A stretch of 64,000 bases of DNA from an uncultured Candidatus Saccharibacteria bacterium (lineage in GTDB: Bacteria > Patescibacteriota > UBA1384 > CAYGGE01), in assembly GCA_964349485.1 (NCBI GenBank), contig CAYGGE010000002.1, positions 72,060 to 136,059 on the forward strand, written 5' to 3'. Under the pieces are notes generated by a model. It did no database searches and was not told the origin of the DNA. It was given only the letters and a program-made list of their open reading frames with translations. The first letter of the stretch is position 1. Every line of letters starts with the position of its first letter. Shown one piece after another: positions 227 to 56,891 of this stretch. Position numbers and translations under genes: made by a program.

Positions 227-274
227 AGGAGGACTATCACTAGACGGGCGTTTACCCTTATAGAGCTACTGGTT

Positions 275-775: not shown

Positions 776-791
776 AAAGAAAGACGTAACT

Positions 792-1909: not shown

Positions 1910-2649
1910 CTACCTACTCAACGAGCGCTAAACAACGTGACGGTTTCGGTCTCATCGAGGTCATGTTTGCTGGTGCTGTTTTTGTAGTAGTGGTCGGTGG
2001 CATGGTAACGCTCGGTCGCTTGGCGTTACGCAATGCCGCCCTAGCGACACAACGAACGCAAGCGATGAACCTTGCCCAAGAGGGGATTGAGACAGTTCGT
2101 CAAATGCGCGATACTGCCTGGATCGATGACCTAATTTATCAGGAAGATGGCAGTACAGTCAAAGATTGGCAGACCTATGTTCATGATTGCTACAATCAGT
2201 CGACCGACGCTGGGGACAAGTTAAAATTTAGGCCGATTGCTTTCAATACTCAATATGCAATTTGTTACGATACTCTTGGTAACCCACCACTTAATCGTTA
2301 CGGACTGATGCCAATAGCTGCCAACTGTCAGGATATCAGTGTTGGCAATAAAGCCGACAGTTGTATCAGATTACTCGACGATCTAAACCAACATGACCCT
2401 GGAAGCCCACCCTATTACCGACGGACGATTGAATTTAGAGCAGTTCCTGCCACCACTGCTTCGGGAGGTTCATTGGAATTTCCCGGGCTACAACTGTTGG
2501 AAAGTGATGCCGATAATCAATCGATTTTATCACTCGACGCTGAACCTTATCACTTTGTTAATGTCATTGTGACTATCGAGTGGACGGCCTTCGACCGACC
2601 ATGGTCCGTCAAGCTAGAAACAATGTTAACTAACTGGCGAGGTAAATGA
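1900..2649 (+). CDS. Minor pilin (PilW/PulJ-like)
   Basis: N-terminal motif DGFGLIEVMFAGAVFVVVVGG. Translationally coupled to its neighbours. Confidence 0.55.
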   Translation: MFMTTYSTSAKQRDGFGLIEVMFAGAVFVVVVGGMVTLGRLALRNAALATQRTQAMNLAQEGIETVRQMRDTAWIDDLIYQEDGSTVKDWQTYVHDCYNQSTDAGDKLKFRPIAFNTQYAICYDTLGNPPLNRYGLMPIAANCQDISVGNKADSCIRLLDDLNQHDPGSPPYYRRTIEFRAVPATTASGGSLEFPGLQLLESDADNQSILSLDAEPYHFVNVIVTIEWTAFDRPWSVKLETMLTNWRGK

Positions 2650-3500
2650 TGCCGCTCCTGACCAAACGCAGTAGAAGAGCCTTCAGCTTGCTCGAAATCT
2701 TGATCGCCACAGCGATTTTCACCATGATCTTAGTCGCCGCTGTTGGTATCTTTACGAGCACCACAGCTAGTACAAGTACTTCAGGTCAATTACGCCTCAA
2801 TATCCAGACGGGTCGATTCATATTTGAGTCGTTAGCACGTGAAGTTCGTCTATCACGTGGTCTGGTCATGGCCGATCAAGACGCAACGGCCAAGAATCGA
2901 TTCATTATCCCGCCATTTCATATCATTAAAGAAGGGACGAGAGTCGTGGGGATCGCAATCTTTCAGGTTGAGAAAACTAGCTTCACTTCGGCTGGCGACC
3001 CAGAATATTCAGTAACTTGCCGTGTTTACAGCACATATGATACTGATCGATTAGCAGTTTGGACATATCGTAGCAGTAGACCAATGACGGCAGATAATAT
3101 ACGACAGAACATACCTTTAGAACAGTGCCGCCCTGTTGAGCCACTATATGGACCTGTTGATACGCCAGTTGACGTATCCGGTTTTGGACCGGCAGAATAT
3201 TGGCAAAATGTTGTTGGACCAAGTGATCTATTGCCACAACGTACCAAGCTCGGTCAGTTTAAGATTGTCAATTGGCACGATTACAGTTCCGCGGATAATC
3301 CTTTACTACTCGGCTCTCCAGACGATCTAAAAGTTCAACCGTTTATTCAGCTTCAGCTTTCTGTTTTAACTATCAACAAACTAACGGTTGGTCAAACTGG
3401 AAAAGAAGCGCGGACGACCTTAAGAAGTAACATCGTTCCACGAGATTTTTCGTCCAAATATGAAGTGGCCCAAGTTGGGGTGAGAGGAGTGGGTCAATGA
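2646..3500 (+). CDS. Minor pilin / pseudopilin
   Basis: N-terminal motif RRAFSLLEILIATAIFTMILV. The start overlaps the upstream stop. Confidence 0.55.
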   Translation: MMPLLTKRSRRAFSLLEILIATAIFTMILVAAVGIFTSTTASTSTSGQLRLNIQTGRFIFESLAREVRLSRGLVMADQDATAKNRFIIPPFHIIKEGTRVVGIAIFQVEKTSFTSAGDPEYSVTCRVYSTYDTDRLAVWTYRSSRPMTADNIRQNIPLEQCRPVEPLYGPVDTPVDVSGFGPAEYWQNVVGPSDLLPQRTKLGQFKIVNWHDYSSADNPLLLGSPDDLKVQPFIQLQLSVLTINKLTVGQTGKEARTTLRSNIVPRDFSSKYEVAQVGVRGVGQ

Positions 3501-4435
3501 CCATCAGCCGACGATCCAGACAGGGTAGTGCTCTAGTGATTACGATTTTAATAATCACGATCATTACCACACTGTCATTTACAGCGACTGGTTTGGCATT
3601 GTCTGAATTTCGGAAAGTTGCTGTGTTGCAGGATAGTATCTCAGCTTACTATACTGCTGAAGCGGGAATCGAACACGGTCTCATGCAACAACGACTTTGG
3701 AAAAACGCTGAACTGTCAAAAGAGTATTATGCGGCCCTCCAGAGTCCTTCTGCTGATCCGCAGTCGGTTGGTGACCTTGATACACCACAGATGTACTTGC
3801 TTAGCGGCCTAAATAGATTTGTTCTGGGTAACGCGTTGCCTGCGGATAACCCACTTTGGTACGGTCTAAAGATGAGGTACAAAAATGATCATATTGGTTC
3901 ACTCACATCAAGCAAACAGCCTGTGATCGGACCCGCATCACCCCGACTATTCCGTGATAGCGCCATGCAGTTAGCTGTACCGAAGGGTGCTAGACGAGTT
4001 GCCATAGCCTGGGAACCAACCGGAGGTAATACCACTATTCGACCAGGCCTTGATTTTAGTTATTTCCTCGAGATCACTATAACCTACAAAAAAATAGGTA
4101 CTGAGGCATTGCAGGTGGACCATCAAATTATTAGTAGTAGCCAACTTTTAAGCACAGGCTCGCCTAACGATATTACTCTTCCTGATGGCACCGAATCGAT
4201 TCGAATTAAACCTTGGGACATGGACAGTGTACTGCTGAGTCTGGTTATGTATGACGCCAACAGTCAACCGTTACTATTCGACCGTCAGGTTACCACGATT
4301 AATGCTACGGGGACAGTCGGCCAAGCCAAGCGAACTATCGACGTCTCAATCAATCGTTCTAGTCAAAACTTACTAGAAGCTTCGGATTTCTTACTCCTGA
4401 CTGGAGATAGTCCAATCATCATTAATGGCGATTAA
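3497..4435 (+). CDS. PilX/GspK-like minor pilin
   Basis: N-terminal QGSALVITILIITIITTL followed by AEAGIE, resembling the PilX N-terminal domain. It is the last gene of the pilin operon. Confidence 0.5.
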   Translation: MTISRRSRQGSALVITILIITIITTLSFTATGLALSEFRKVAVLQDSISAYYTAEAGIEHGLMQQRLWKNAELSKEYYAALQSPSADPQSVGDLDTPQMYLLSGLNRFVLGNALPADNPLWYGLKMRYKNDHIGSLTSSKQPVIGPASPRLFRDSAMQLAVPKGARRVAIAWEPTGGNTTIRPGLDFSYFLEITITYKKIGTEALQVDHQIISSSQLLSTGSPNDITLPDGTESIRIKPWDMDSVLLSLVMYDANSQPLLFDRQVTTINATGTVGQAKRTIDVSINRSSQNLLEASDFLLLTGDSPIIINGD

Positions 4436-22879: not shown

Positions 22880-23878
22880 ATGGAAGACCGACTTATTGAA
22901 CTAGCCAAACTACTGGGGATCGATACTAAACGTCATCGAATTACCGAAATAGAGACTGCAATGGAAGCAGCTGATTTTTGGCAAGACCATGAAACTGCCG
23001 GCCGACTATCACAAGAATTGACTCGTCTCAAGGAAGTAGTTGAACAGTACGAATTAGTGCTACTCGACCCAACTGATCCCGAAGCCAAAAAACTACTCGA
23101 GAAACTTGAGTTTGAGACGCTGTTTAGCGGACAATATGATCACCAGAATGTTATTCTGAGCATCCATGCCGGTGCTGGAGGGACTGAAGCTCAAGACTGG
23201 GCAGCGATGTTGTTACGGATGTTTCAGCGTTACGCAGAGCGAAAGGCATGGCAAACTCGGTTGATCGATCTGTCGCATGGAGAAGAAGCGGGTATCAAGT
23301 CAGCAACTTTAGAGTTGCAAGGACCCCAAGCCTATGGATTATTAAAAAGTGAAGCAGGTGTCCACCGATTAGTGCGGATCTCGCCATTTGATGCGGATAA
23401 AGCCAGACACACCTCATTTGTACTTGTTGAAATCACTCCTGAAGTTGATAACCTAAAAGCAATTGACATTAAGCCCGATGACCTAAGGATTGATGTCTAT
23501 CGGTCTGGCGGTCACGGTGGTCAAAGTGTTAATACAACGGACTCAGCTGTCAGAATTACACATCTTCCGACCGGATTAGTAGTAACTAGTCAAAATGAAC
23601 GAAGCCAACTGCAGAACAAAGAACTTGCCATGAAGGTTCTCGTCTCACGACTACTTGCAAAGCAAAACGAAGACCAACGCAAACGTGATGTCGAATTGCG
23701 GGGCGAACATGTTTCTGCCGAGTGGGGGAACCAGATTCGCTCATATGTCTTACATCCTTATCAAATGGTCAAAGATCATCGGACAGAAATTGAGACCAGC
23801 AATACCGAGGCGGTACTGGGCGGTGATCTCGACATGTTCGTAGAAGGGTATTTACGAATGCAGGTAAACAAGGCATAA
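22880..23878 (+). CDS. prfB: Peptide chain release factor 2, with no programmed frameshift
   Basis: SPFDADKARHTSF (the RF2-specific SPF motif) and GGQ (SGGHGGQSVN). It is a single ORF with an in-frame stop 9 nt upstream of the ATG. Confidence 0.85.
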   Translation: MEDRLIELAKLLGIDTKRHRITEIETAMEAADFWQDHETAGRLSQELTRLKEVVEQYELVLLDPTDPEAKKLLEKLEFETLFSGQYDHQNVILSIHAGAGGTEAQDWAAMLLRMFQRYAERKAWQTRLIDLSHGEEAGIKSATLELQGPQAYGLLKSEAGVHRLVRISPFDADKARHTSFVLVEITPEVDNLKAIDIKPDDLRIDVYRSGGHGGQSVNTTDSAVRITHLPTGLVVTSQNERSQLQNKELAMKVLVSRLLAKQNEDQRKRDVELRGEHVSAEWGNQIRSYVLHPYQMVKDHRTEIETSNTEAVLGGDLDMFVEGYLRMQVNKA

Positions 23879-29418: not shown

Positions 29419-31890
29419 GTGGAACAGGATATCTACACAACTGCCCAGCCGTCGTTGATTGGCCCGGTTATCCTGGTCCTTTTAGCTTTAGCCGTTACCT
29501 TCTTGCTGGTAGCCTATTTCTGGTATTTACGTCGACTCAAATTTAAACGAGCGGCCAACTGGGTCATGCTCTTGGTCTCTGTCCCTAAGGAATCGAGCCA
29601 CGGCAAAGACGAACAGCAGAAGCCTCAGGAATGGCGCGAAGTGGTCTCGGTAGCAGAACAGATGTTTGCCAGCTTTGGTTCGCTTTACAGTACTCATCCA
29701 ATAGATTTAATCTTTGGTCAGACTCATCTATCGTTCGAAATTGTGGTTAGAAATAATGAGATATTATTTTACGTCGGCTGTTCTCGGGCGAATCGTGAAG
29801 TAGTCGAGAAGACTATCTATGCCTTCTATCCCGCTGCAATCATTGAAGAGAGCAGAGAGTTTCGGATTTTTGATAAATCATTCCAAGTTCGCAGCGCCAC
29901 ACTTCGTCTGGCGAAATACTATGTTTACCCAATCAAGAGCTATAAAACCCTTGAGGCGGACCCGTTAAACAACATCACCAATGCACTATCCAAAATGGGG
30001 GAGCAGGGGAGAGCAACAATCCAGTTTATTATCCGTCCGGCTAGTGATCGGTGGCGCTTGCGGGTTGAAGAGGCAAGCCATCTGATTGGCGTGGGTCAAG
30101 GCTATGATGTCCATCACAACTCTACCATCCGCATGTTTCGGGAAATAAAACGAGTCATCAGCCCGCCTAAAGAAGAAGCCTCAACAAACCGAATGCGGAC
30201 GCCGATTCAAGAAGAAAAACTAAAAAATCTTTCTGAAAAAGCTAGTACCTCAGGCTTTCATGTAGTTAGTCGCATAATCGCCGCCGCCCCGACAGCCGCC
30301 GAGGCTGATGCCTATCTTGCCAATATTGTTGCCGCCTTCTCCCAATTCCAAAACCCAGCCGCTAATGGCTTTAAGTATGAAAAGATGAGTGGCGAACGGT
30401 GGTTTGTAACCGACTTCGTCCTTCGAGCCTTCACCGGACGCTGGATGATCCTTAATACCGAAGAACTCGGCTCGTTGTTTCATTTCCCAAATCAATTTGT
30501 CGATACTCCCAATATTCGATGGTTGCGTGCTAAACGGGCTCCGGCACCGCCCAGCCTGCCCAAAGAGGGGCTCTATATTGGCGATAACATGTTTAGGGGC
30601 GATAAGACGAATATTTTTCTTAAGAAAGAAGACCGTCGTCGACACCTTTATATGATTGGTATGACTGGCACGGGTAAAACGACATTGTTTGAAAACATGA
30701 TCCTACAGGACATCAAAGCTGGCCACGGTATCTGCTATATCGATCCCCATGGTGATACAGCAGAAGGTTTGCTGTCTAAGATACCTCGTGAGAGAGCCGA
30801 AGATGTCATCTACTTTGATCCAGGCGATCTTGACCGACCGTTCGGATTGAACATGCTTGAGTGGAAGACGGCCGAAGAAAAGGACTTTTTGGTTCAAGAG
30901 ATTATTCAAATCTTCTACAAACTGTTTGACCCGAACCAAACTGGTATTGTCGGACCACAATTTGAACACTGGTTGCGTAACGCCGCCTTGACGCTTATGG
31001 ATTGGCCTGAAGGTGGAACCTTAATTGAGATCCCTCGGCTATTCACTGACGATGCTTATCGTGACTTGCGAGTCGAGAAACTTCAAGATCCTGTCGTAAA
31101 AGCCTTCTGGACACAACAGATGGCCAAAACTGCCGACTTCCATAAGTCGGAGATGTTCAATTACTTCATCTCCAAATTCGGTCGGTTTATGACAAACACG
31201 ATGATGCGCAATATTATCGGCCAACCCAAGGGTTCGTTCGATATTGCCGAAGCGATGAATAGTGGGAAGATCCTCATCGTCAACCTTTCCAAAGGTAAGA
31301 TGGGTGAGGTCAACGCAAACTTGATTGGCATGATATTAGTCGCCAAGATTTACACCGCCGCCATGGCTCGGCACAATATTCCTGAAGAACAACGTAAAGA
31401 CTTCTATCTATACGTCGACGAGTTCCAGAATCTGGCGACCGATACATTTGCCTCAATTCTCTCCGAGGCTCGAAAATATAGACTCGCTTTGTCTATAACC
31501 AACCAGTACATCTCCCAGCTCCAAGAGCCAATCCGTGATGCAATCATTGGGAACGTAGGAACTATCATCTCCTACCGAATCGGAGTGCCTGACGCTGAGT
31601 TCTTAGAGAAAGAGTTTCAGCCAGTCTTTAATTTTCACGACCTGAATAATCTTGAACGCTACAACGCGTACATTAAATTGCTAGTCGATAATTCACCGAG
31701 CCGACCGTTTTCGGTGAAAATTAATAAAGATGATACACCGTCGATTCCCGAGATTGGCCACGGTGTCCGTCAGTTATCTCGGTTACGCTACGGTCGCGAT
31801 CGCGGTCTCGTCGACGCCGAAATCTACGAACGGACCAAGATTATGGACGCACCGGCCGCCAAGGGGACCGATCCGCTATCACCAAGTTAG
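29419..31890 (+). CDS. Membrane-anchored FtsK-HerA superfamily ATPase, closest to type IV coupling proteins (VirD4/TraG/TrwB-like 'T4SS DNA-binding domain' proteins); paralog 1
   Basis: N-terminal TM helix. An unassigned domain of about 350 aa. Walker A GMTGTGKTT, then YIDPHGD, Walker B FYLYVDEFQN, and ARKYRLALSITNQYISQL...IGNVGTIISYRIG. Confidence 0.6.
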   Translation: MEQDIYTTAQPSLIGPVILVLLALAVTFLLVAYFWYLRRLKFKRAANWVMLLVSVPKESSHGKDEQQKPQEWREVVSVAEQMFASFGSLYSTHPIDLIFGQTHLSFEIVVRNNEILFYVGCSRANREVVEKTIYAFYPAAIIEESREFRIFDKSFQVRSATLRLAKYYVYPIKSYKTLEADPLNNITNALSKMGEQGRATIQFIIRPASDRWRLRVEEASHLIGVGQGYDVHHNSTIRMFREIKRVISPPKEEASTNRMRTPIQEEKLKNLSEKASTSGFHVVSRIIAAAPTAAEADAYLANIVAAFSQFQNPAANGFKYEKMSGERWFVTDFVLRAFTGRWMILNTEELGSLFHFPNQFVDTPNIRWLRAKRAPAPPSLPKEGLYIGDNMFRGDKTNIFLKKEDRRRHLYMIGMTGTGKTTLFENMILQDIKAGHGICYIDPHGDTAEGLLSKIPRERAEDVIYFDPGDLDRPFGLNMLEWKTAEEKDFLVQEIIQIFYKLFDPNQTGIVGPQFEHWLRNAALTLMDWPEGGTLIEIPRLFTDDAYRDLRVEKLQDPVVKAFWTQQMAKTADFHKSEMFNYFISKFGRFMTNTMMRNIIGQPKGSFDIAEAMNSGKILIVNLSKGKMGEVNANLIGMILVAKIYTAAMARHNIPEEQRKDFYLYVDEFQNLATDTFASILSEARKYRLALSITNQYISQLQEPIRDAIIGNVGTIISYRIGVPDAEFLEKEFQPVFNFHDLNNLERYNAYIKLLVDNSPSRPFSVKINKDDTPSIPEIGHGVRQLSRLRYGRDRGLVDAEIYERTKIMDAPAAKGTDPLSPS

Positions 31891-31961
31891 ATGTAATAAG
31901 AGTACCGTTCCTAACTGATTTATGGTATAGTACACTGTGATGTAAAAAGGACAACGAAGCC

Positions 31962-34900
31962 ATGGATTTCTTTCTCTTTCTTGTACGAGTGCTGGTTTAT
32001 CTGACCCTGATTGTAGGCCCGGTAGCTATCATTTATATTGTCATCAAGATTCGTGAGACCTCAAAAACGATCGAAGCCGTGACCAGCAAAACTAATACGT
32101 TGCTACGTATTTTAGTCCCGAAACAGAACGAGAAGACACCTCAAGCCGCCCAAGAAATGTTTGCGGCGATTCATGGTATCTATCGAGCTGATCAGACAGT
32201 CCAAGATCATCTCTCTTTTGAACTTGCGGCGAGGGATCAGTATATCCAATTTTTTGTGCATGTACCGAGCGACCTTAAGGATTATGTCGAGGGTCAAATC
32301 TACGCTCAATATCCAACTGTCGAAATTAGCGAGGTTTCTGACTATACCGAGATCGATCTGGCCAATTGGTCAGTGGCTGCTGCTGAACTGGTCTTAACTA
32401 AGCCAGACATCTTTCCAATCAAAACCTACCAGAACTTTACCGTTGATCCATTGGCGGCGGTTACCGGAGTGCTCTCAAAAATTGAAGAAGGTGAGCAGAT
32501 TTGGGTTCAGATCTTAACTCGGCCGATTCCTGACACCTGGCAAGCGAAAACCCTTCAGTACGTCAAGATGATCGAGAGTGGCAAGAAGCCGAATGACGGT
32601 AAGTTAACTATCGGTAAAATTCTCAAGGGAACAGCCGGTGTAGCTGTCGAATTTGCCCGTACGGCGGCTGGTGGACCAATTGTTGAGGGCGAAAAAAAAG
32701 AAGCGGTTAAGCCAGCACTCCCAGGGCCAGTTAGTGAAGGCTTACGAGCGGCTGAGGCAAAAACTACCAAACTGGGTTATGAAACCGTTATCCGACTATG
32801 TGCCATTGGGCGTGACGAAAAAGCAGCGATTGCGCGGATAAATAATCTTTATGGTGCCTTCAAGCAGTTCAATATTAGCAATATGAACGGTTTTGATTTA
32901 AGTCGAGTCTCTACCGAGAAAGATAAGATCCTGCCGGTCTTTCAGACCAGAGCATTCCCAGCACAAGGTTATATTTTTAATGTGGAAGAATTGGCTTCAA
33001 TCTTTCATCTACCGAGCGTAAGCGTTGAAACGCCTTCCATCGTTTGGGCTGGGGCGAAAAAAGGCGAACCGCCGGCTAACTTGCCCATCGAAGGTTTGGT
33101 TAACCCAGACGATGTGACCTTGTTTGCCCAAACTAATTACCGACATTTTGCTCATCGTTTTGGAATCAGAACTCCAGATCGACGCTATCATATGTACGCC
33201 GTTGGTAAGACGGGTACGGGTAAATCTACCATGTTACGTAACATGATCATCGATGATATCCAAAAGAATCGTGGTGTCTGTGTGGTTGACCCTCATGGTG
33301 ACCTCATCAACCATGTGCTTGACTACATCCCTGAGCACCGGATCAAAGATGTTGTCTACTTTAACCCAGCAGATCGTGAGCATCCGGTTGGGTTTAACCT
33401 GTTGGAATCAGTTGATCCTGATTTGCGCAGTATCGTCGCTTCTGGACTTATGAGTATTTTTACCAAACTGTGGGCCAATGTATGGTCGGCTCGTATGGAA
33501 TACATTTTGCGTAACACCGTTTTAGCTTTACTCGAGTATCCTGAAGCAACTTTACTTGAGATAATGAAGATTTTGGTGGACCCCGTCTTCCGACGCAAAG
33601 TACTCTACTATGTGAAAGACCCAGTAATACGAGACTTCTTTTTAAATGAATATGAAAAATATGAGCCGAAGTTCCGAACTGAGGCGATTGCACCACTCCA
33701 GAATAAAGTCGGACAGTTTCTTTCCTCCTCAACGATCCGCAATATTATGGGTCAGATGCACTCGACGATTGACATGCGAGAGATAATGGACAGCGGGAAG
33801 ATTCTCCTTGTTGACTTAGCGGTCGGGAAGATAGGTGAAGATAACGCGGCCTTGCTCGGTTCGATGATTATCACCAAGATCCAATTGGCGGCTATGGGAC
33901 GCGCCGACACTCCGGAAGACGAACGACGTGATTTCTATCTCTATGTTGATGAGTTTCAGAACTTTGCTACTGAGTCGTTTGCGGCAATCCTATCTGAAGC
34001 GCGCAAGTATCACCTTAATCTCATCATCACGCATCAGTACATCGCTCAGATGCCAGAAGTTGTGGCTAGTGCGGTCTTCGGCAATGTTGGAACGATCGTT
34101 GCCTTCCGGGTAGGAGCCTCAGACGCGGGCGCTTTAGCTAGAGAATTCGAACCGGTTTTTGACGCGAACGATCTAGTAAATCTCGACAATTATCAAGTCT
34201 ATCTAAAGATGGCTATCGATGCCAGAACTGCTACGCCGTTTTCAGCTCTCACACTAGCGCCATTTGTCGGCAGAAATGAACATCGTGAAACTGCGATCAA
34301 ACAGAGTATTGAAAAATATACTCGATTACGGGGCGAAGTTGAAGAAGAAATATTGACACGTAATGAGGCGAACACCGGCAAGATTGGGACGTTTAGAGAA
34401 ATTGATGGTGAGGTAGTCTATGAGGAAGAATTGAAACCGTACGAGCCGATGAACCCATTACCTAAGAGTACGACTATCGACGGAGTTGAGGTATGGAAAG
34501 TGCGCGATAAAGAAGGCAAACCGTTCTATGTTAGTCCTAGAGACTACGACGCCTTCATGGCCGATAAGGGCAAGCCATCTGATCGCGTAGGGTCAGAGCA
34601 GGGGAGTAGCGACTCGCAAAAGAGTGGCACATTAAACCATGTCGCAGGACCGCTATTACCAGCAGATAAACCGAAGTCGGCTTTAGTTCCACCGCCCAAA
34701 GTGCGAGTGATAGCGCAAGCTACGGTAAATAGAGCTTCTGAGGATCCTAATATTGTGCGACATAATAGATCACGCAATAAGGGTAGTAATCGGGGTAATC
34801 CACCAACGGGCGGTAATAATCAAGTCTCCTCTCCGTCGGTCCCAGCAAACGTAGGTCAGGGGAGTCATGACGCAAATCAGGGTGTGCTCATCGAGACAAA

Positions 34901-35093
34901 ACCTGTCCCAGCGACAGAATTAATTAAGGATACCAACCATATGTTGCCAACCATTACCGAGCCTAAGACACACGATGTAGTAGTAGCGCCCCCAAAACAG
35001 GTCGATCCAACTGTAACCATTGCCGCTAAATACAATGATCTTGACGATCCTAACGACGATCAAGGCGCTATATTGCCAATCCATGAGCTCTAA
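31962..35093 (+). CDS. Membrane-anchored T4CP/FtsK-like ATPase; paralog 2, with a C-terminal Pro/Ser/basic disordered tail of about 260 aa
   Basis: Same architecture as the upstream gene: Walker A GKTGTGKST, VVDPHGD, FYLYVDEFQNF, and ARKYHLNLIITHQYIAQM...GNVGTIVAFRVG. The N-terminal domains are alignable (SFEIVV.../SFELAA..., DPLNNITNALSKM/DPLAAVTGVLSKI). Confidence 0.6.
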   Translation: MDFFLFLVRVLVYLTLIVGPVAIIYIVIKIRETSKTIEAVTSKTNTLLRILVPKQNEKTPQAAQEMFAAIHGIYRADQTVQDHLSFELAARDQYIQFFVHVPSDLKDYVEGQIYAQYPTVEISEVSDYTEIDLANWSVAAAELVLTKPDIFPIKTYQNFTVDPLAAVTGVLSKIEEGEQIWVQILTRPIPDTWQAKTLQYVKMIESGKKPNDGKLTIGKILKGTAGVAVEFARTAAGGPIVEGEKKEAVKPALPGPVSEGLRAAEAKTTKLGYETVIRLCAIGRDEKAAIARINNLYGAFKQFNISNMNGFDLSRVSTEKDKILPVFQTRAFPAQGYIFNVEELASIFHLPSVSVETPSIVWAGAKKGEPPANLPIEGLVNPDDVTLFAQTNYRHFAHRFGIRTPDRRYHMYAVGKTGTGKSTMLRNMIIDDIQKNRGVCVVDPHGDLINHVLDYIPEHRIKDVVYFNPADREHPVGFNLLESVDPDLRSIVASGLMSIFTKLWANVWSARMEYILRNTVLALLEYPEATLLEIMKILVDPVFRRKVLYYVKDPVIRDFFLNEYEKYEPKFRTEAIAPLQNKVGQFLSSSTIRNIMGQMHSTIDMREIMDSGKILLVDLAVGKIGEDNAALLGSMIITKIQLAAMGRADTPEDERRDFYLYVDEFQNFATESFAAILSEARKYHLNLIITHQYIAQMPEVVASAVFGNVGTIVAFRVGASDAGALAREFEPVFDANDLVNLDNYQVYLKMAIDARTATPFSALTLAPFVGRNEHRETAIKQSIEKYTRLRGEVEEEILTRNEANTGKIGTFREIDGEVVYEEELKPYEPMNPLPKSTTIDGVEVWKVRDKEGKPFYVSPRDYDAFMADKGKPSDRVGSEQGSSDSQKSGTLNHVAGPLLPADKPKSALVPPPKVRVIAQATVNRASEDPNIVRHNRSRNKGSNRGNPPTGGNNQVSSPSVPANVGQGSHDANQGVLIETKPVPATELIKDTNHMLPTITEPKTHDVVVAPPKQVDPTVTIAAKYNDLDDPNDDQGAILPIHEL

Positions 35094-35858
35094 TACCGGG
35101 TAGGTTAAGTAGGGGAATTGAACCTGTCGGAACCTGTTAAAAGTAATAACAGACAGGGGAGACTGTCGAAAGAAATATTACCAATGAATAATGACTCTAA
35201 TGGGATAGACGTCGTTTAAGGGTATGAGAGATTCACTTGACGATATGCCGTACTGGCTGATATGAAGGAATATTCGATTCTATCCATAAATCCATCAGTT
35301 TTGCTTGCAGTATTGTTATACGATAGTTTACCTGCTAGCTCTTTGTGCAATCCCCTTAGCATCGGAGCACTTTCTCGTCAGTCGCACAATGTATCTTATG
35401 CGACGTAATACGGATAATAAAGTATACATTCATCTTCTACATCCTGGATTACTATTGAATTCTATAACGATCTATCTAAACGAGTTTTAGGGCTGTGATT
35501 ATAGGATAACAACGCGTACACAGTCTCAATATCTAGACTAATGACACGAACCTGAAATCGTCAAACCACTACCCCGAGACATTTATAGTATATGCTATGG
35601 CTACGACAACGTGGTTACGGCAGTATAAGCTATAATTCGTTCCACATTTGCAAATCGTATTTGATTATTAACTCTCCCCTATCATCACGGGTCCTCACTG
35701 GTCAATTCGCCTTCCAAATGAGTAGATGCCAAGCCAAAATCGCCTATTTAACGGGTTAAAAGGCATTACAATTGGCCAGGACATAACAAGGAATCATGAT
35801 ACGATAAATGTGTCACACTAGTTAAAAAAAAGAGACCTTGGTGGTTTAGAACAATACT

Positions 35859-36773
35859 TTAGGCCGCCTGTCGACGCATCAACCATTGCTGCCAAATGAC
35901 GAGCAAGGGCGTAGCGACGAAGATCGACGAGTAGGTCCCGAAACTCATACCGATAATCAGAGTAATTACAAATGGTCGTAGACTATCTCCACCGAGGAAT
36001 GCCAAGGCGATCAGTACTAAGAGTGTAGTTATTGAGGTGTTCAACGATCGATTTAAGGTTTGGGTTAAAGCCTCATTGGTAGACGACTCGAAGGCTTGTG
36101 GGGTCGCGATCGGTGTGTGGCGCATGTTTTCGCGTAAGCGATCGAACACGACAATTGTATCATGTACCGAGAAACCCATGATTGTTAGTAAGGCTGTGAT
36201 GAACAGCGCATTGACCTCGTAACCGAGATAATAACTAAGGATGGCAAATAGTCCTATGGTTACGGCGATGTCGTGAATGAGAGTAAATACGGCGACGAAC
36301 CCAAAGCGCCAACTCGAGGCAGGCCTGGGAACACTCCGAAATGAATAGGCGATATATAGGATGATCGCGATCGAGGCGATAATGACGGCCTGTATCGCCT
36401 TTTGAGTCAAATCATTCCCGACAGTCGGTCCTACACTCTCAAACCGACTGATGAGGACTTTATGCTTCTCCCATTTCTCCGGAAGTCTCCCCTCTTTTTC
36501 CTTGGTTAAGGTCTCCGTTTTTAAGATGACACCTCCATCACCAGTTACCTGGCTGGTGACATTTTCGATCCCGGTTTCCCGGAGATCTTTTTTGAGGCTC
36601 TCCAGCGCTTCGTCGCTAATCTTTTGCTCCTTACCCGTAATCTCAATCAGTGTCCCACCTGTGAAGTCGATGCCAATTTTGAGACCCCAGACACTTAGAC
36701 TGATGATCCCCGCTACGATGAACAATCCCGAGATTGAGAGCCATAGCCATTTTTTCTTGCCGAGTAATTGCAT
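35859..36773 (-). CDS. secF: Protein translocase subunit SecF
   Basis: IDFTGGTLIEI motif, then six TM helices. Confidence 0.85.
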   Translation of the reverse strand: MQLLGKKKWLWLSISGLFIVAGIISLSVWGLKIGIDFTGGTLIEITGKEQKISDEALESLKKDLRETGIENVTSQVTGDGGVILKTETLTKEKEGRLPEKWEKHKVLISRFESVGPTVGNDLTQKAIQAVIIASIAIILYIAYSFRSVPRPASSWRFGFVAVFTLIHDIAVTIGLFAILSYYLGYEVNALFITALLTIMGFSVHDTIVVFDRLRENMRHTPIATPQAFESSTNEALTQTLNRSLNTSITTLLVLIALAFLGGDSLRPFVITLIIGMSFGTYSSIFVATPLLVIWQQWLMRRQAA

Positions 36774-49454: not shown

Positions 49455-50738
49455 CTAGCGTTGAAACGCGTTCAAGCCAGCATATTTCGCATTATCCCCT
49501 AAACTCTCTTCGATGCGCAGTAGTTGATTGTACTTGGCAATTCTATCAGTTCGTGAAAGCGAACCCGTTTTAATCTGTCCTGTGCCTAAGCCAACGGCTA
49601 GATCGGCAATTGTAGTATCTTCAGTTTCTCCTGAGCGGTGAGAGATTATCACAGCAAACCCATTATTCCTAGCTAGATCAACTGTCTCGATGGTTTCGGT
49701 GACTGTGCCGATCTGATTAAGTTTGATCAGAATTGCGTTAGTCGCCTTAAGGCCTATGCCTTTTTGTAGAAACTTTGGATTAGTCACAAAGAGATCGTCC
49801 CCTACTATCTGGATTTGTCGACCCATCTGTTCAGTCATGGACTGATAGCCAGTCCAGTCGGCCTCGTTAAGCGGATCTTCGATCGAAACAATCGGGTAGG
49901 CATTAACCCAGCGTTTATAGAGCTCAATAAGTTCACTAGTCGTAAACTGACAATTCTCCAGAGAAAATTGATAGGCGTTCGAGCTATACAGCTCACTGGC
50001 CGCTACATCGAGAGCGAAGACGATGTCCTTACCCAAATCGTAGCCGGCATCTTTAGTTGCTTGGCTAAGCAGTGTGAACGCCGCCTCATTTTCTTTGAGT
50101 GGAGGCGCAAAACCGCCCTCATCACCAACGGTTGTGCTGTGGCCGGATTGCTTGAGAATTGATTTAAGGGCAGAGAAGACCTCGGCCCCCATACGTAAGG
50201 CCTCTTTGAAAGTTCTGGCGCCAACCGGGAGGATCATGAACTCCTGGATGTCAGTCGATTGGTCGGCATGTTTACCACCATTAATCACATTGATGAGTGG
50301 TACGGGCAGTTGATAGCTACGAGGTGCGGTGCTTGAAAGACTCTGAAAGTAGGCGTATAGGGGAAGTTTTCGACTGGTCGCAATAGCTTTGGCTAAGGCC
50401 ATGGAAACGCTAAGTATCGCATTGGCTCCAAGATGACTCTTGTTGTCCGTGCCATCAAGGTGAATTAATAAATTGTCGATGATTGACTGCTCTGCCTCTT
50501 TTCCGATCAATTCTTTGGCGATAATTTCGTTAACGTTATGTATCGCTTTTTTTACTCCTCTTCCGTTGTAGCGAGCATCTGCATCGCGTAACTCAATTGC
50601 TTCGTGACTGCCGACAGATGCTCCAGATGGCACAGAAGCCCGACCGAAAGACCCATCGCTGAGTGACAAGTCAACCTCCACGGTAGGAGTGCCGCGTGAA
50701 TCAAGTATTTCTCGCCCTAAGATATGTGTAATTATGAT
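49455..50738 (-). CDS. eno: Enolase. The start codon is non-canonical or missing (see findings).
   Basis: SHEAIELRD, DDLFVTN, and SHRSGETED motifs are present. The conserved N-terminal ILGREILDSRGTPTVEV is encoded upstream of the first GTG. AGGGAG lies 6 nt before an in-frame ATC. Confidence 0.85.
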   Translation of the reverse strand: MIITHILGREILDSRGTPTVEVDLSLSDGSFGRASVPSGASVGSHEAIELRDADARYNGRGVKKAIHNVNEIIAKELIGKEAEQSIIDNLLIHLDGTDNKSHLGANAILSVSMALAKAIATSRKLPLYAYFQSLSSTAPRSYQLPVPLINVINGGKHADQSTDIQEFMILPVGARTFKEALRMGAEVFSALKSILKQSGHSTTVGDEGGFAPPLKENEAAFTLLSQATKDAGYDLGKDIVFALDVAASELYSSNAYQFSLENCQFTTSELIELYKRWVNAYPIVSIEDPLNEADWTGYQSMTEQMGRQIQIVGDDLFVTNPKFLQKGIGLKATNAILIKLNQIGTVTETIETVDLARNNGFAVIISHRSGETEDTTIADLAVGLGTGQIKTGSLSRTDRIAKYNQLLRIEESLGDNAKYAGLNAFQR

Positions 50739-50848
50739 AGCTAACTCCCTATCGTTACCATACTACTTTTTTAGCCGTTTGTAAGTCTAGGTGGCTGACC
50801 AAAACGGCCAACCATGAAATATGTATATCTGCTAGAAAAATCGTCGAT

Positions 50849-52627
50849 CTAGTCGATAGCCTGCTCTAACCTGGTAATAAATTCTCCAATAACTGACAGA
50901 CCGTCTTCCCAGAAATCTGGTCGGCTAATGTCTAATCCGACTATTGCCAAACTCTCTTTAGGGGTTAGTGAACCACCGGCACGGAGGATGTCCAGATAGG
51001 CTGGGACGAAGGCATTACCTTGTTCCTTATATTGTTTGTATAGGGCCAAGACACATAATTGAGCAAAGGCGTACGAATATACATAAAATGGCATTTCGAA
51101 GATGTGATTGACATACATCCAGGTATTTTTGTGCTCGTCGGTGTATGTTAATGCAGCTTTAAATGGGGCTTTCATCGTCTCATGCCAGAGGTTGTCGATC
51201 TCGTCTTTCGATAACTCCCCTTCTTTCCGGCGGAGTTCGTGAACCGCTTGCTCAAATCGGAACATCGTCGTTTGGCGGAAAACAGTGGCGAAGGTGCCTT
51301 CAATATGAGCCATGAGTAGCGTAGTTTTGTCGTCCTTACTAATGTTCGGATCGCCAATCAGTTTTTCAAATAGTAGAGTCTCGCCGAACACACTGGCAAT
51401 CTCAGCCAGGGCCAAGGAGGGGTGAATCTCGAGAAAGACATTCTTTTGCGCGGCTAGAACGTCGTGAATCGCGTGCCCTAACTCATGAGCCAGGGTCATG
51501 ACGTCACGGGGCGAATTGGTATGATTCAATAAGACGTAGGGATATAGATCAGTGTCGCCAAAGGCACAGAAGGCCCCACCACGCTTCGTTTTTCCCGGGA
51601 ACCAGTCGATATGCTCTTTCTCGTACATCTGCCGTACTATTTCAGCCATCTCCGGAGAAAAATCTCCATAGGCATGTTCTACCATGGTCTTAGCCTCTTC
51701 GGCATTAATCTCCGCCTTAGTTTCGGGGAGCGGCGCGTAGCGGTCATACCAATGTAACGTATCAGTCTTTAAGATCTTCTTCTTAAGGTTGTAGTAGCGT
51801 GTGACTAGGCTGTACGACTGCTCTACAGCAGTAGCCATGGCCAGGACGGTCGGCTTGTCGACGTTGTCCGACATGAATCGGGATTGCTCGGGAAACTCAT
51901 ACTGACGTAACCGGTCGGTCATCGCTTTGTCTTGGAGTAACGAGTTGAAAATGGCCGGCGTAGTCTGATCGTTTTTTGCCAGGCTCTTATGGAGAACTAT
52001 GGCGGCTTGCTGGCGAGTAGAGGCATCGGAACTATGAAACTGAGTTAGTAATTCTTCAAGGGTGATCGTCTTACCGTTCCAATCACATTCTAGCGTGTCA
52101 GTCGTGATTTCGAATAGATGAGTTAAAGCCTGCCAACTGGTCTGGCTCTTGTCTGCTAGAATCTTCTCTTCGGGCTCGGATAGGACATGCTTCGAAGCCT
52201 CGTACTGTTCTCTAATAAAGTGTTTATATGGCGATAGAATGTCTGCTTTAAGATACTCTTGCCAGCGATCTCTAGGGATCTGGGCTAGTTCTACTTGAAT
52301 AAAGATCGTCTGCTTGGCACGATCGATGATTTGCTCGTCGATCTTTTTTCGAAACCGAGTTATTTCATTTACACCAATGTTGGTACTCTCTAGGAGGCTG
52401 GCAAAGAGATCAATGCGGTGGAAGATGCGGCTCAACTGTTCCCAGGTGGTAATCAGTTGATGCAGATCGGATGATGTGAGATTGGTGATCTTACCTCGAT
52501 ACATATCAAGGGTTTTGATCAGTGCGTCTGCTTCGTTTAACGATGTCGCAATAGCTGGGTCGTTTACTCCAGCATAGAGATCAGTCAGCCGCCATTTTGT
52601 TGACTTAGTTTTAGTATCCATTATCAT
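50849..52627 (-). CDS. pepF: Oligoendopeptidase F (M3B family)
   Basis: HELGHAIH zinc motif. About 590 aa. Confidence 0.8.
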   Translation of the reverse strand: MIMDTKTKSTKWRLTDLYAGVNDPAIATSLNEADALIKTLDMYRGKITNLTSSDLHQLITTWEQLSRIFHRIDLFASLLESTNIGVNEITRFRKKIDEQIIDRAKQTIFIQVELAQIPRDRWQEYLKADILSPYKHFIREQYEASKHVLSEPEEKILADKSQTSWQALTHLFEITTDTLECDWNGKTITLEELLTQFHSSDASTRQQAAIVLHKSLAKNDQTTPAIFNSLLQDKAMTDRLRQYEFPEQSRFMSDNVDKPTVLAMATAVEQSYSLVTRYYNLKKKILKTDTLHWYDRYAPLPETKAEINAEEAKTMVEHAYGDFSPEMAEIVRQMYEKEHIDWFPGKTKRGGAFCAFGDTDLYPYVLLNHTNSPRDVMTLAHELGHAIHDVLAAQKNVFLEIHPSLALAEIASVFGETLLFEKLIGDPNISKDDKTTLLMAHIEGTFATVFRQTTMFRFEQAVHELRRKEGELSKDEIDNLWHETMKAPFKAALTYTDEHKNTWMYVNHIFEMPFYVYSYAFAQLCVLALYKQYKEQGNAFVPAYLDILRAGGSLTPKESLAIVGLDISRPDFWEDGLSVIGEFITRLEQAID

Positions 52628-52691
52628 AATATACGGATCAAATGTGAACCTGTAAACAGTCTGTGGCTATACCACGAGGAGTAAGTATGGG

Positions 52692-53748: not shown

Positions 53749-55221
53749 TTAAGAGAACCGACTAGCTGTCCCCCAGCCTACTAAACCCAGTCCAGCGACG
53801 ATCATAGCAGATGCGATTTGCCAGCCGTTAGACGGCTCAACCTCCTTATTTTGACCCAGAACTGTGGGATCTGAATTCGCCATCTTGTGATCGTCTGCTT
53901 GGCTTGGCTTCTCGGTTGCTGGCAGTGCTGTGGCTAAGCTCACCTCTACGGCAGTTGGTTGTGCAATATCCCTTACGGTTGAGACTATCTGGTTAAGCAC
54001 TGTTCTCTCCGATGGTTGAGGCGATGGCGTTACGGTTACGAAGGCAACCACAGTTGGGGCTGGCGTGGGTGTAACCGAAGGATTGAGCGATGGAGCCGGT
54101 GAGGGTGAGGTGGCTGGTGTGGGGGTAGAGGTAGAGATTACTGTTGGAGTTGGCGAGGTTTTGATAGTGGGTGTTGGACTTGGCGTAGGTGGCTGCGTTG
54201 CTGTGACAGTTGGCGAAGGACTAGCGGTCGGTTCCTCAGTCGGAAATTGACTTGGCGCGGGAGTAGGCGTTGGTTCCGCACTCGGCGTTGACGATGGATT
54301 GGGTGATGTTGTGACAATCACCGCTACCGGTAAAGCTTTGCCGGCAAAGGCAATTGCGGCAAATGAGCTAGTAAACGAGTCAGGTTCGTTACCTGGTCCC
54401 CAACTAACGCCCCCACTCTCATTCTGTAGTGTAGTCAGATAATCAATCGGATTAGCCCCATTGCGCACCCAACTGTATGGATCTTCGCCGAGTGAACGAA
54501 TTGCGCTGATTACCCAAGCGGTACTTGAACCGTCGGCCATAGAACTAGCCACAAACGGGAAACCACCCGAATCTTTTTGAAGGGAGATCAAATAATCACG
54601 GGCGCCCTCACGATCGTAAGTGTCGGTCCAACCGCGATGTAAGGCCAGTTCAAGCGCTTGGATGGCGACTGCTGTGTTATTACTATCCCCATTGCCCTCA
54701 CTACTCCAGCTGAACGAACCGTTAGGCTGTTGATGACTGACCAGATAATTCAGGCTGTTAGACACCACTGGATCAGTGATCGACTCATTGGCCGCAATTA
54801 AGGCCAAGATGCCGAAAATATCATCATTGAGTAGCTCAGGCGAGCCGATTTGATTGTCTTGAGTCTTAGACTTTAAGGTGGCGACGAGGTCGGTGTTGCC
54901 AAAGTTTTTCGGATCTCGACCACCGGCGATGACTGCTAAAATAGTCCGTTCGAGGTCAGTTGCGGGCGCGTTTGCCATGTCACCAAGGTTATCTTCAAGA
55001 TATGCCACGGTTTGATTGCTACTTAGTCCGTTGGCTGACAGAGCCTGTAAGGCCCAACTGGAAAAGCCGACCCCACCAATGCTCCCACTTGGCTCACGCA
55101 AAGAAAGTAGGTAGTTGGCAGCCTTTTCTGCTTGTGGTGCACTGGTCTCGGTCGCTACTACATAGCTTGAGATACCGAGCGTCAAAACGATGAGGAGTGA
55201 AATTATAAATAGTTTTTGCAT
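53749..55221 (-). CDS. Surface protein with prenyltransferase/squalene-hopene-cyclase-type alpha-alpha-toroid repeats, a Pro/Thr-rich stalk and a C-terminal TM anchor
   Basis: Signal peptide present. Repeats QQPNGSF, LQKDSGGF, and QNESGGVSW (the Q-x-x-x-G-x-W/F repeat class). A PT-rich linker of about 110 aa. C-terminal hydrophobic anchor. Confidence 0.55.
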   Translation of the reverse strand: MQKLFIISLLIVLTLGISSYVVATETSAPQAEKAANYLLSLREPSGSIGGVGFSSWALQALSANGLSSNQTVAYLEDNLGDMANAPATDLERTILAVIAGGRDPKNFGNTDLVATLKSKTQDNQIGSPELLNDDIFGILALIAANESITDPVVSNSLNYLVSHQQPNGSFSWSSEGNGDSNNTAVAIQALELALHRGWTDTYDREGARDYLISLQKDSGGFPFVASSMADGSSTAWVISAIRSLGEDPYSWVRNGANPIDYLTTLQNESGGVSWGPGNEPDSFTSSFAAIAFAGKALPVAVIVTTSPNPSSTPSAEPTPTPAPSQFPTEEPTASPSPTVTATQPPTPSPTPTIKTSPTPTVISTSTPTPATSPSPAPSLNPSVTPTPAPTVVAFVTVTPSPQPSERTVLNQIVSTVRDIAQPTAVEVSLATALPATEKPSQADDHKMANSDPTVLGQNKEVEPSNGWQIASAMIVAGLGLVGWGTASRFS

Positions 55222-55281
55222 GAAGGTATATTTATTTTATTCGGTTGGAGGGAGGGCGAGAGGCCCTGCCTCCCGCCCTCA

Positions 55282-55731
55282 TTACGTGTAAGGGCCGTCT
55301 GGGTTGGTGTTCATGAGCAGTACCTGCTGATGAGGTTCCACTATCTGTGTCGATAGCCCAGCACCTGCTCCGAGAATGAAGTACACTGGACTAGCCAGAT
55401 CGACTGGGCGTAGCTGTCTCGGCCCGACGAACAAGCACCAATACTTTCCGGTAGCTGGGTTGTTTTCCATCCCACGAGCACTGGTCAGCATGGTTCCGTT
55501 AACCGACCAATATTGATAGCGAAACACACCGTACTGCACTCGATATTGGCGGTGCATGGACCACAATGCGTCCAGGATTGTGCCACCGCGGTTAATGTAG
55601 ACAGTCCTCGTCAGAGGCCGACCTTCACCTGTGTCGATGGTGATTCGGACGGCCTGCTTGCGGGTCAAGGCCTGACAGGCGCTACTTAGTAAGCTCGACA
55701 GGCATGCGCAAAATAAAAACCGGCGGGTCAT
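55282..55731 (-). CDS. DUF4430-like (transcobalamin-like beta-grasp) secreted protein
   Basis: Signal peptide present. Pattern T.LDAL...Y.V.Y....VN...YW...VG......G...V..GD.V.F. Confidence 0.45.
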   Translation of the reverse strand: MTRRFLFCACLSSLLSSACQALTRKQAVRITIDTGEGRPLTRTVYINRGGTILDALWSMHRQYRVQYGVFRYQYWSVNGTMLTSARGMENNPATGKYWCLFVGPRQLRPVDLASPVYFILGAGAGLSTQIVEPHQQVLLMNTNPDGPYT

Positions 55732-55852
55732 CGTCTTTACCTTTCGACGACAACGGTCCCCTATTGAACCGTTAAGGTGCCCCGAAATAGGATTACTGCT
55801 TCGGGCAAGGAGAAGGAGAATGAATATCCCCTACCCACTTTCCCGATTCAGT

Positions 55853-56488
55853 CTAAGCGCAAGGGCTTTCGGCTTCGTTGGTCAGGAAGAGCTCGATACT
55901 ATCGCTGGCTTTAACCGTCTGGCTGCTGATCCCCTTGGAGACGCAGACATTGTTAACCGTATAGGTCCAGAATCGGTTATTGCCTTGACTCTGGCCATTG
56001 ATTTCGGTGATTAACTCGCCGAGACCAGTGTATGATTGCGTTTTAAAACTGAGACCACTAGTTTTGGCTTGATGTAGGACATCAATAACTTTGACTTCGC
56101 GATCGATTATCACAGTGTAACTGGTACCGGGAACCTTAATAGTGACGTTCTGTTGCTCTATAGGTAGTGCCGTGGGACTACTAGTTTGTGGTTGGTAGTC
56201 TGGTAGCGATACTACAGGGCTGTAGATTGGTAGATTGGTTTCGTTTATGTCGATGGGCAATGAGGCCGCAGTAGCCGTAGTGGTTTTCTTCTGAGTCGGC
56301 TTGGAAGTTGCTGTCCCTTTGACGGTACGGATCGGACTAGCTGTGGCAATAGCCGGTATTGAAACTGAGGGCTCTGGTGAAGGTGTGGCAGATGCCAAAT
56401 GGACCGGCGAATATTGGGGTAGATTGGCGACGTTCTTGTTCTGGTTTCCGCGCAGGCCGTAGATGATCCCACCGATGATCAAAAGCAT
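55853..56488 (-). CDS. DUF4430-like secreted protein with a Ser/Thr/Pro-rich N-terminal linker
   Basis: C-terminal VIDVLHQA...FWTYTVNNV...ASDSIELFL matches DUF4430 conservation. A possible non-AUG start lies upstream (see findings). Confidence 0.45.
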   Translation of the reverse strand: MLLIIGGIIYGLRGNQNKNVANLPQYSPVHLASATPSPEPSVSIPAIATASPIRTVKGTATSKPTQKKTTTATAASLPIDINETNLPIYSPVVSLPDYQPQTSSPTALPIEQQNVTIKVPGTSYTVIIDREVKVIDVLHQAKTSGLSFKTQSYTGLGELITEINGQSQGNNRFWTYTVNNVCVSKGISSQTVKASDSIELFLTNEAESPCA

Positions 56489-56891
56489 GCCCAGGCTGAT
56501 CGCAATGGGGCTAATGGAACTAGATTTGTTTAGTTGATTGTTTATGGTCTGCTCCTAGGAAAGTGGTAAACAAAAAACCTATCTTGAGATAGGCAGATAA
56601 GAACTCCGTTAAAAAAAACGAAAACTCATCTAATGACCTGTCTCGAGGTTTAGAGGGGTTAACCAAACTGGTTTTCTGGCTTAGCGGCAGCTATTTCGAG
56701 CTATGCGAGAAACCTCGTTAAAACGGTAATTTCTCACATAGTTCGAAATAATTCTGACGATTTACAGTAGCGGACCTGTCCTTGATTTACACAAGGTTCC
56801 CAATCGTTTGGTTATAACATGAGGTTAAGGTGCACTTCCTACAGTACTTACTATATATAGCACTGTCAATGATAAATTATCCACAATATAG

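Follow-up and report, generated by a model that had tools for sequence, protein, structure and literature searches.

The 64,000-nucleotide (nt) stretch of DNA analysed here, called the window, comes from an uncultured Candidatus Saccharibacteria bacterium and carries about 57 genes. Only three of these lack a canonical start codon near their upstream stop: the gene of the glycolytic enzyme enolase, the gene of the first pilin of a type IV pilus cluster (pilin 1), and the gene of a membrane protein with a DUF4430 domain. In each of them, a Shine-Dalgarno (SD) motif is followed at short distance by an in-frame AUH codon (AUC, AUA, or AUU; ATH in the DNA), which is a candidate site of translation initiation.

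Start regions of the three genes

The enolase gene lies on the minus strand, where its frame reads TAG (50765-50763) TAT GGT AAC GAT AGG GAG TTA GCT ATC (50738) ATA (50735) ATT (50732) ACA CAT ATC TTA GGG CGA GAA and continues to ACC GTG (50681). The in-frame peptide across this region is YGNDRELAIIITHILGRE, that is, K-K-*-Y-G-N-D-R-E-L-A-I-I-I-T-H-I-L-G-R-E. The TAG at 50763-50765 bounds a start-less gap, as none of the 27 codons from this stop to GTG 50681 is ATG, GTG, TTG, or CTG. Read from ATC 50738, the coding sequence occupies positions 49455-50738 and comprises 427 codons plus the stop. It scores 636.9 bits against the TIGR01060 eno model (cut-off 300), with positions 1-423 of the 425 model positions falling on residues 3-426. 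Pfam Enolase_N positions 1-130 correspond to residues 3-130, position 1 being the ATT codon, and solved enolase structures are collinear with the window enolase from their residue 3 onward.

The candidate start codons of enolase form an in-frame ATC-ATA-ATT run (50730-50738), which is preceded by the SD motif AGGGAG (50745-50750) and six intervening nt (TTAGCT). The duplex of this motif with the anti-SD has an energy of -7.4 kcal/mol and exceeds 71% of the canonical starts in strength. Measured from the 5-mer GGAGT, the distances to ATC, ATA, and ATT are 5, 8, and 11 nt, respectively. ATC 50738-50736 is the most likely start because its SD spacing of 5 nt is inside the range of canonical starts; ATA is possible, and ATT would be beyond the reach of the SD. 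Reading from ATC places seven residues ahead of G-R-E, and orthologues have 6-9, with a mode of 8. A promoter and terminator scan of the enolase leader (50600-50950) returned no match; by eye, a weak TTGGCC-16-TAGACT about 45 nt upstream of the site aligns with TTGACA-17-TAAAAT of L082, the locus of the nearest enolase relative.

Pilin 1 is encoded on the plus strand directly behind the prepilin peptidase gene pilD, of which the 3' end is found at positions 2-226 (in contig L092 this is a Peptidase_A24 gene of 249 aa). The pilD stop TAA is in frame with pilin 1 and 9 nt ahead of its ATC, so that the junction reads TAA (224-226) AGG AGG ACT ATC (236-238) ACT AGA CGG GCG TTT ACC CTT ATA GAG. An extended, 8-nt SD motif, AAAGGAGG (225-232), is followed by ACT and ATC 236; with -11.7 kcal/mol it belongs to the top 8% of window starts, and it stands 3 nt from the ATC. 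The coding sequence from this codon (236-775) gives a short basic leader, (M)TRRA, and the mature N-terminus FTLIELLVVIG. Positions 1-24 of the TIGR02532 model (IV_pilin_GFxxxE) fall on residues 3-26, and Pfam N_methyl (PF07963) matches as well. The product thus has the form of a prepilin, (M)TRRA followed by FTLIELLVVIGIIGIIA, with pilD directly upstream, and its match to TIGR02532 requires a start at ATC 236.

The type IV pilus cluster to which pilin 1 belongs is complete (window 1-4435, plus strand; L092 1-9952) and syntenic with that of a relative (L088). It contains a large surface protein, PilO, PilB, PilT, PilC, two pilins, PilD, at least five pilin-like genes, and a PilX-like gene. Within the cluster, only the first pilin after pilD is without an ATG.

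The DUF4430 gene, again on the minus strand, would extend from ATA 56545 to 55853 and carries the PF14478 domain on residues 155-220. Its start region consists of TAG (56557-56555), the overlapping SD motif AGGAG (56556-56552), CAGACC, and ATA (56545-56543). The SD is formed by the in-frame TAG together with the following GAG, lies 6 nt ahead of the ATA, and has an energy of -6.5 kcal/mol. Upstream, a cobalamin riboswitch is located at 56649-56839 on the minus strand (Rfam RF00174, 34.8 bits; gathering score 31.5), followed by a terminator hairpin (56593-56578) with a T-run (56577-56572); the same layout is present in a relative (L084). The riboswitch controls an operon at 53749-56545 (minus strand) that encodes the DUF4430 protein, a 149-aa lipoprotein-like protein, and a 490-aa prenyltransferase/SCO2321-like membrane protein. 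This arrangement of riboswitch and three genes also occurs in the relative (L084 1-3531), and the operon is likely a cobalamin capture or uptake module.

A preliminary description of this DNA had drawn attention to all three sites, and most of its details agree with the sequence. In enolase, it reported that no ATG, GTG, or TTG precedes GTG 50681, which the translated frame of 27 codons bears out, and it correctly placed AGGGAG (50750-50745) six nt before the ATC-ATA-ATT run. Its enolase peptide is right from G-N-D-R-E onward; the leading K-S-S-I is wrong, the frame having K-K-*-Y there. The upstream in-frame stop that it put at 50772-74 was also misplaced: the TAA near 50773-50771 is in a frame other than that of enolase, and the true stop is the TAG at 50765-50763. 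Its descriptions of the pilin site (AAAGGAGG-ACT-ATC 236 with the leader (M)TRRA ahead of FTLIE) and of the DUF4430 site (AGGAG, 6 nt, and ATA for the gene at 56488) hold as given.

Public gene calls place the starts of all three genes further downstream, at the next canonical codon, and thereby shorten the products to 404 aa for enolase (P0001, from TTG 50669), 166 aa for pilin 1 (P0125, from GTG 275), and 211 aa for the DUF4430 protein (P0121, from ATG 56488). That the ribosome, too, begins at these codons and produces N-terminally truncated proteins finds support in these calls and in enolase, where a GGAGG formed by Val-Glu-Val codons stands 5 nt before TTG 50669 (50667-50680, minus strand) and has an SD energy of -10.0 kcal/mol. 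Against this stands the unusually stable folding of the RNA around TTG 50669 (-18 kcal/mol, exceeding that of 96% of real starts), which suggests a decoy. The other two codons have no SD: GTG 275 (-2.1 kcal/mol) lies within the hydrophobic helix of the pilin, and ATG 56488 (-0.9 kcal/mol) in the middle of the only transmembrane helix of the DUF4430 protein. The truncated products would also lose essential parts. An enolase start at GTG 50681 or TTG 50669 would drop the first 17-21 TIGR01060 positions. The pilin would lose its leader and FTLIE and could be neither processed nor assembled; in the called product P0125 the N_methyl match is indeed gone. The DUF4430 protein would lose half of its transmembrane helix, and its orthologues P0122-P0124 align through SPxAIxLG, which is upstream of ATG 56488.

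The skipped codons themselves and the relatives of enolase also contradict truncation. Counted by eye, synonymous outnumber non-synonymous differences from relatives before the first canonical start in enolase (9 to 2 in 17 codons, against L082), pilin 1 (7 to 2 in 11 codons), and DUF4430 (5 to 2 in 8 codons), and these counts indicate that the upstream codons of all three genes are under purifying selection. We compared 199 enolase relatives, namely the 119 closest database homologues and 80 GTDB loci among the matches listed, and none is truncated or without a canonical start. All 80 GTDB loci have a canonical start, nearly always ATG, 6-9 codons before (A/G)RE, and all 119 homologues have at least six residues before this motif (mode 8). 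The preliminary description had named truncated orthologues as a result that would speak against its view, and neither set contains one. Initiation at the downstream canonical codons is therefore quite improbable.

Assemblies, relatives, and gene integrity

The ATH codons could in principle be sequencing or assembly errors in a genome that has ATG at these sites. The prior implausibility of AUH starts speaks for such errors, and nothing else does. Wherever they overlap the window, eleven contigs from this organism agree with it at 100.000% identity, free of mismatches and gaps. Their sources are Logan assemblies of the runs ERR3094294, ERR3094295, and ERR3094296 and the ENA assemblies ERZ27247817, ERZ27247828, and ERZ27247830, which are MEGAHIT-style; the contigs thus provide independent coverage from three sequencing runs and two assemblers, with at least three contigs over each of the three start sites. 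In addition, restoring an ATG at the ancestral position would take several base changes in enolase and in DUF4430. Errors in the sequence are hence an extremely improbable explanation. The preliminary description had left the choice between a non-canonical start and an error or mutation, and had named a consensus error as grounds for giving up the former. The assemblies remove the error, an AUH start is the best reading that is left, and mutation of an ATG is literally true in the evolutionary sense, as the comparison with relatives indicates.

Close relatives of this organism are sparsely represented. The GTDB scan for enolase found none above 61% identity among the matches listed, and in protein database searches the closest relatives reach 71% amino acid identity for enolase and 56-57% for the pilin and the DUF4430 protein. 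The nearest enolase relative (P0002, 71% identical) is encoded in the same gene order in L082, where the start reads AAAGGAAG-CC-ATG-GCC-AAA-ATT. An ungapped alignment of 53 nt, made by eye between the anchors GGCTAAAAA upstream and CGAGA downstream, brings the window AGGGAG onto the L082 SD AAAGGAAG, and the window GCT, the codon before ATC, onto the L082 ATG.

Pilin orthologues likewise start with ATG and have long leaders, which read MKQLVPLTANYRSG before the F in L088 and M-S-N-V-R-Y-Q-...-N-R-R-A before the F in L091. The start region of L091, pilD-TAA-GGAGAT-ATG-AGC, corresponds to pilD-TAA-AGGAGGACT-ATC-ACT in the window, so that the ATC occupies the position of the L091 ATG. The leader has shrunk to 5 residues here, compared with 14 to more than 21 in the relatives, and RRA with the following F is kept. 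DUF4430 orthologues begin with MEEQTTE, and the L084 sequence behind the riboswitch terminator is GAGGAG-TTATC-ATG GAA GAG CAG ACA. The window has ...TCC TAG GAG CAG ACC ATA at this place: The old ATG is lost, codon 2 is now TAG, and TAG plus GAG make up the new AGGAG. The SD energies in the window and in the relatives are -11.7 versus -2.4 and -7.0 kcal/mol for the pilin, -7.4 versus -5.9 kcal/mol for enolase, and -6.5 versus -8.1 kcal/mol for DUF4430.

In all three genes, the nearest orthologues therefore have an ATG that coincides with or adjoins the homologous position, and the AUH codons are not conserved. Since the relatives have ATG in all three cases, the alignments identify the AUH state as derived from an ancestral ATG and particular to this genome, and not as a conserved feature. 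They also indicate that the starts of all three genes were remodelled rather than hit by one mutation.

A derived state of this kind could mean that all three are null or near-null alleles of recent origin, in which the ATG was lost by mutation, the AUH codon is incidental, and a pseudogene is in the making, as might happen in a small-genome lineage under strong drift. The ATG in all relatives marks the state here as a loss, other pilin genes flank pilD and could make pilin 1 dispensable, and an ancestral SD would persist for a short time after the start is lost. Enolase also carries a change at a conserved site. Of 150 columns with an invariance of at least 97% in a set of 120 sequences, it retains 149, and its sole deviation is T42V in the SGASTG metal-binding loop (window 50613-50615, minus strand); the 119 homologues deviate at 0-3 of these columns.

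The integrity of the genes speaks against decay. Their open reading frames (ORFs) are uninterrupted over 427 (enolase), 179 (pilin), and 230 (DUF4430) codons, and ortholog length comparison and domain coverage revealed no frameshifted, split, or prematurely stopped gene among the roughly 57 genes of the window. With P0011 as outgroup, enolase has 31 unique changes versus 30 in P0002. With the outgroups P0003-P0012, the numbers are 46-49 versus 18-22, a comparison in which P0002 is equally close to the outgroups and to the window gene and the topology is unsafe. Loss of the start codon is thus the only lesion, and constraint on enolase is normal, which is not the picture of a pseudogene. Random decay would mainly give nonsense and frameshift changes, start loss being a small share of inactivating mutations, so three start lesions with zero nonsense or frameshift changes in about 75 genes would be very unlikely under it. 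Three start-codon changes without other lesions hence argue that expression is retained, if reduced. Moreover, the start regions of enolase and DUF4430 are several substitutions away from those of the relatives, yet 427 and 230 codons have stayed open and conserved; the DUF4430 SD is not ancestral but new and correctly spaced from the ATA; and the pilin SD exceeds those of the relatives in strength. On balance, we consider null alleles unlikely, although they are the most serious of the competing explanations.

Probable initiation at AUH codons and its frequency

As a reference for the three sites we used 52 confident starts of the window, comprising 46 ATG, 3 GTG, and 3 TTG codons. The SD energies of the AUH sites (-7.4, -11.7, and -6.5 kcal/mol) all exceed in strength the canonical median of -5.85 kcal/mol (n = 52). 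Their spacings from SD to codon, by the 5-mer measure, are 5 nt in enolase, 3 nt in the pilin, and 5 nt in DUF4430, and a spacing of 3-7 nt is found in 24 of the 27 canonical starts that have a GGAGG-like 5-mer. Only 4.7% of all AUH triplets across the window follow an SD with an energy of at most -6.5 kcal/mol, and only 0.07% follow one of at most -11.7 kcal/mol.

We therefore favor, with a probability of about 0.6, that the three genes are intact and functional and are translated from near-cognate AUH codons, namely AUC 50738 in enolase, AUC 236 in pilin 1, and AUA 56545 in DUF4430. Among the evidence for this assignment, no canonical start precedes residues that must be translated, and SD strength and spacing at the three sites match those of genuine starts. 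In the mechanism that we propose, SD pairing 3-5 nt upstream would position the 30S subunit, and fMet-tRNA (anticodon CAU) would pair with the first two bases of the AUH codon, the mismatch at the third position being tolerated, so that Met would be the first residue of the protein. Initiation factor 3 (IF3) would disfavor such complexes and keep the output per mRNA well below that of an AUG allele, for which the strong SD of the pilin may partly compensate. Ribosome start at the AUH codons, the choice among the three in enolase, and the lowered expression are all features that we infer. With no canonical start available and an SD at functional distance in all three genes, the sites are probable members of the known class of AUH-start genes, and the mechanism would not be new.

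Several observations weigh against initiation at these codons. AUH initiation is a prediction from sequence, and the codons are not conserved, as every relative examined has ATG, the nearest of them at 71% and 56-57% identity. In strength, the DUF4430 SD falls short of its counterpart in the relative, and enolase has the T-to-V change in its conserved SGASTG loop. Enolase and the pilin behind pilD are normally highly expressed, so a start with 1-30% of AUG output is unexpected. Finally, no additional AUH case is found in 18 kb of flanking sequence.

AUH use could depend on terminating ribosomes, which would reinitiate with the help of the SD after the pilD TAA or a mini-ORF TAG and so bypass rejection at the 30S stage. 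The pilD stop (224-226) is close to ATC 236, and the adjacency of pilD and the pilin is kept in relatives. In enolase, a six-codon mini-ORF, ATG GTA ACG ATA GGG AGT TAG (50741-50761, minus strand), runs in a frame other than that of enolase from ATG 50761 to TAG 50743-41, which ends 2 nt ahead of ATC 50738. However, the mini-ORF has no SD before its ATG and no counterpart in L082, whose upstream ATG is in frame, and the idea that it feeds termination-reinitiation is speculative. No upstream ORF ends near the DUF4430 ATA, which is directly preceded by the riboswitch terminator, so that reinitiation cannot account for this gene. A dependence on reinitiation is hence improbable and would, moreover, be a refinement of AUH initiation rather than a separate explanation.

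Four other mechanisms were considered and rejected. A frameshift from the enolase mini-ORF fails because a +1 shift enters the third frame and soon meets a stop, and the -1 shift that would be needed finds no slippery heptamer at 50761-50738. Readthrough of the pilD TAA into a PilD-pilin fusion is contradicted by L088, where the two frames differ, and TAA is the commonest stop of the window (22 of 53). The region does resemble prfB-type frameshift and readthrough systems in that AGGGAG stands just before the TAG of a short ORF in the enolase leader and the pilin shares its frame with the pilD TAA; unlike these systems, the enolase leader has no slippery sequence, and the in-frame pilD-pilin geometry is absent in L088. 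An alternative genetic code is rejected because TAA, TAG, and TGA all serve as stops (22, 18, and 13) and the ORFs are full length under table 11. Leaderless initiation does not apply to the three sites, which have no AUG and have an SD upstream.

Further AUH cases were found neither in the flanks of the window (9.7 kb on the left side and 8.6 kb on the right, about 18 kb) nor among start-less ORFs in intergenic gaps, nor in 45 kb of relatives. The frequency is thus 3 of about 75 genes in about 82 kb of window and flanks. By our own calculation, the probability of at least three such genes is of the order of 1e-4 if the true rate is about 0.1%, as in Escherichia coli and Staphylococcus aureus; taken by itself, the difference from the relative (0 of about 45 genes) does not reach significance. 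We conclude that the density of candidate AUH starts is unusually high here and that the types of genes affected are unusual as well. The preliminary description had seen a recurring initiation feature, which holds as a pattern at three loci; for the organism as a whole it finds no support in the 18 kb of flanks and the 45 kb of relatives, where cases are absent.

A broader interpretation would be a lineage with relaxed start-codon discrimination, in which AUC, AUA, and AUU serve as ordinary starts throughout the genome at percent-level frequency. We regard this as doubtful. Possible causes would be an altered IF3, changes in initiator tRNA or in the 16S P-site, or loss of the RsmB and RsmD methylations that guard against AUH; of the initiation genes infC, fmt, rsmB, and rsmD, none was found in the window. 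If relaxed discrimination were true, standard gene finders would wrongly give about 4% of the genes a truncated N-terminus.

Parallels in other bacteria and further features of the window

The AUU start of E. coli infC is generally taken to be conserved and to serve the autoregulation of IF3. The codons described here are unlike it in that they are not conserved, the relatives having ATG. The three genes resemble E. coli infC and pcnB (AUU) in that a conserved protein has no possible start other than an SD-backed near-cognate AUH codon, and the mechanism proposed here, with fMet-tRNA, a mismatch at the third position, and reduced efficiency, is like that of infC and pcnB. In contrast to those genes, their products (enolase of glycolysis, a pilin, and a membrane protein) are not regulators, and they would use AUC and AUA rather than AUU. 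E. coli has two confirmed AUH-start genes, and reporters in this species yield 1-2% of the AUG output from AUA, AUC, and AUU, with an N-terminal Met (10.1101/063800).

In S. aureus, non-canonical starts are found at four sites per genome, infC (AUA), cvfC1 (AUU), ccpN (AUA), and citZ (AUA), and AUH codons behind extended SDs reach about 10-30% of AUG (PMC13009471). As at the sites described here, AUH starts are paired there with strong or extended SDs. The closest parallel to enolase is citZ, a central-metabolism gene with a lineage-specific start change: Its AUA is restricted to the NCTC 8325 lineage and gives about 10% of AUG expression (PMC13009471). Differences exist in number, with four sites per whole S. 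aureus genome and three in about 82 kb here, and in the SD, which is extended (8 nt) in the pilin only, the enolase and DUF4430 motifs being ordinary. Start-site ribosome profiling underlies the assignments in S. aureus, whereas those in the window are predicted from the DNA.

The start-codon turnover under selection in prokaryotes described in PMC5622118 is similar in that a lineage swaps an ancestral AUG for a weaker start with possible compensation nearby; here, the stronger SD of the pilin and the new SD of DUF4430 may be such compensation. That study is reported to concern exchanges among AUG, GUG, and UUG, and the AUH replacement proposed here lies outside this canonical set.

If AUH initiation at the three genes is true, the region would rank among the densest sequence-based examples of clustered AUH-initiated genes, with 3 of about 75 genes compared with two in E. 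coli and four in S. aureus. The genes not being regulators, with a core glycolytic enzyme and a pilin among them, would suggest that expression is deliberately tuned down or that start codons are proofread less strictly in this lineage. Similar mis-calls of starts could bias functional inventories of uncultured bacteria.

Beyond these genes, the window contains several features related to translation. Ribosomal protein L7/L12 (26987-27613, plus strand) has a very acidic N-terminal extension of 84 residues ahead of its dimerisation domain, position 6 of the L12 model falling on residue 85; an internal ATG (27182) stands behind GGAGG, and a start there would leave a 19-residue extension. Ribosomal protein L1 (24895-25704, plus strand) is long (269 aa) and has a TTG start behind GGGAGG; its match to the L1 model is split in two, suggesting an insertion. 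The release factor 2 gene (22880-23878, plus strand) scores 445 bits against TIGR00020 and encodes just 332 aa, with a shortened N-terminal domain; it has neither an upstream short ORF nor a CTT-TGA programmed +1 frameshift site.

At 52627-52670 (minus strand), the M3 oligoendopeptidase gene shows a TTTACA-17 nt-TATATT that abuts its ATG, and in L082 (2950-2995) the corresponding gene has TTTACA-17-TATAGT, 6 nt, and ATG. This suggests a conserved promoter that would give a leaderless or nearly leaderless mRNA. Two large adjacent genes for TrwB/VirD4-like and HerA-like ATPases (823 and 1043 aa) are located at 29419-35093 on the plus strand, and in the 766 nt behind them (35093-35859) there is neither a convincing ORF nor an Rfam match. 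To the right of the window (L096 6493-8050), a TIR-domain gene (291 aa) adjoins a Y1 (IS200-type) transposase gene; the pair sits between ribonucleotide reductase and an ABC transporter and may be a small mobile or defence insertion.

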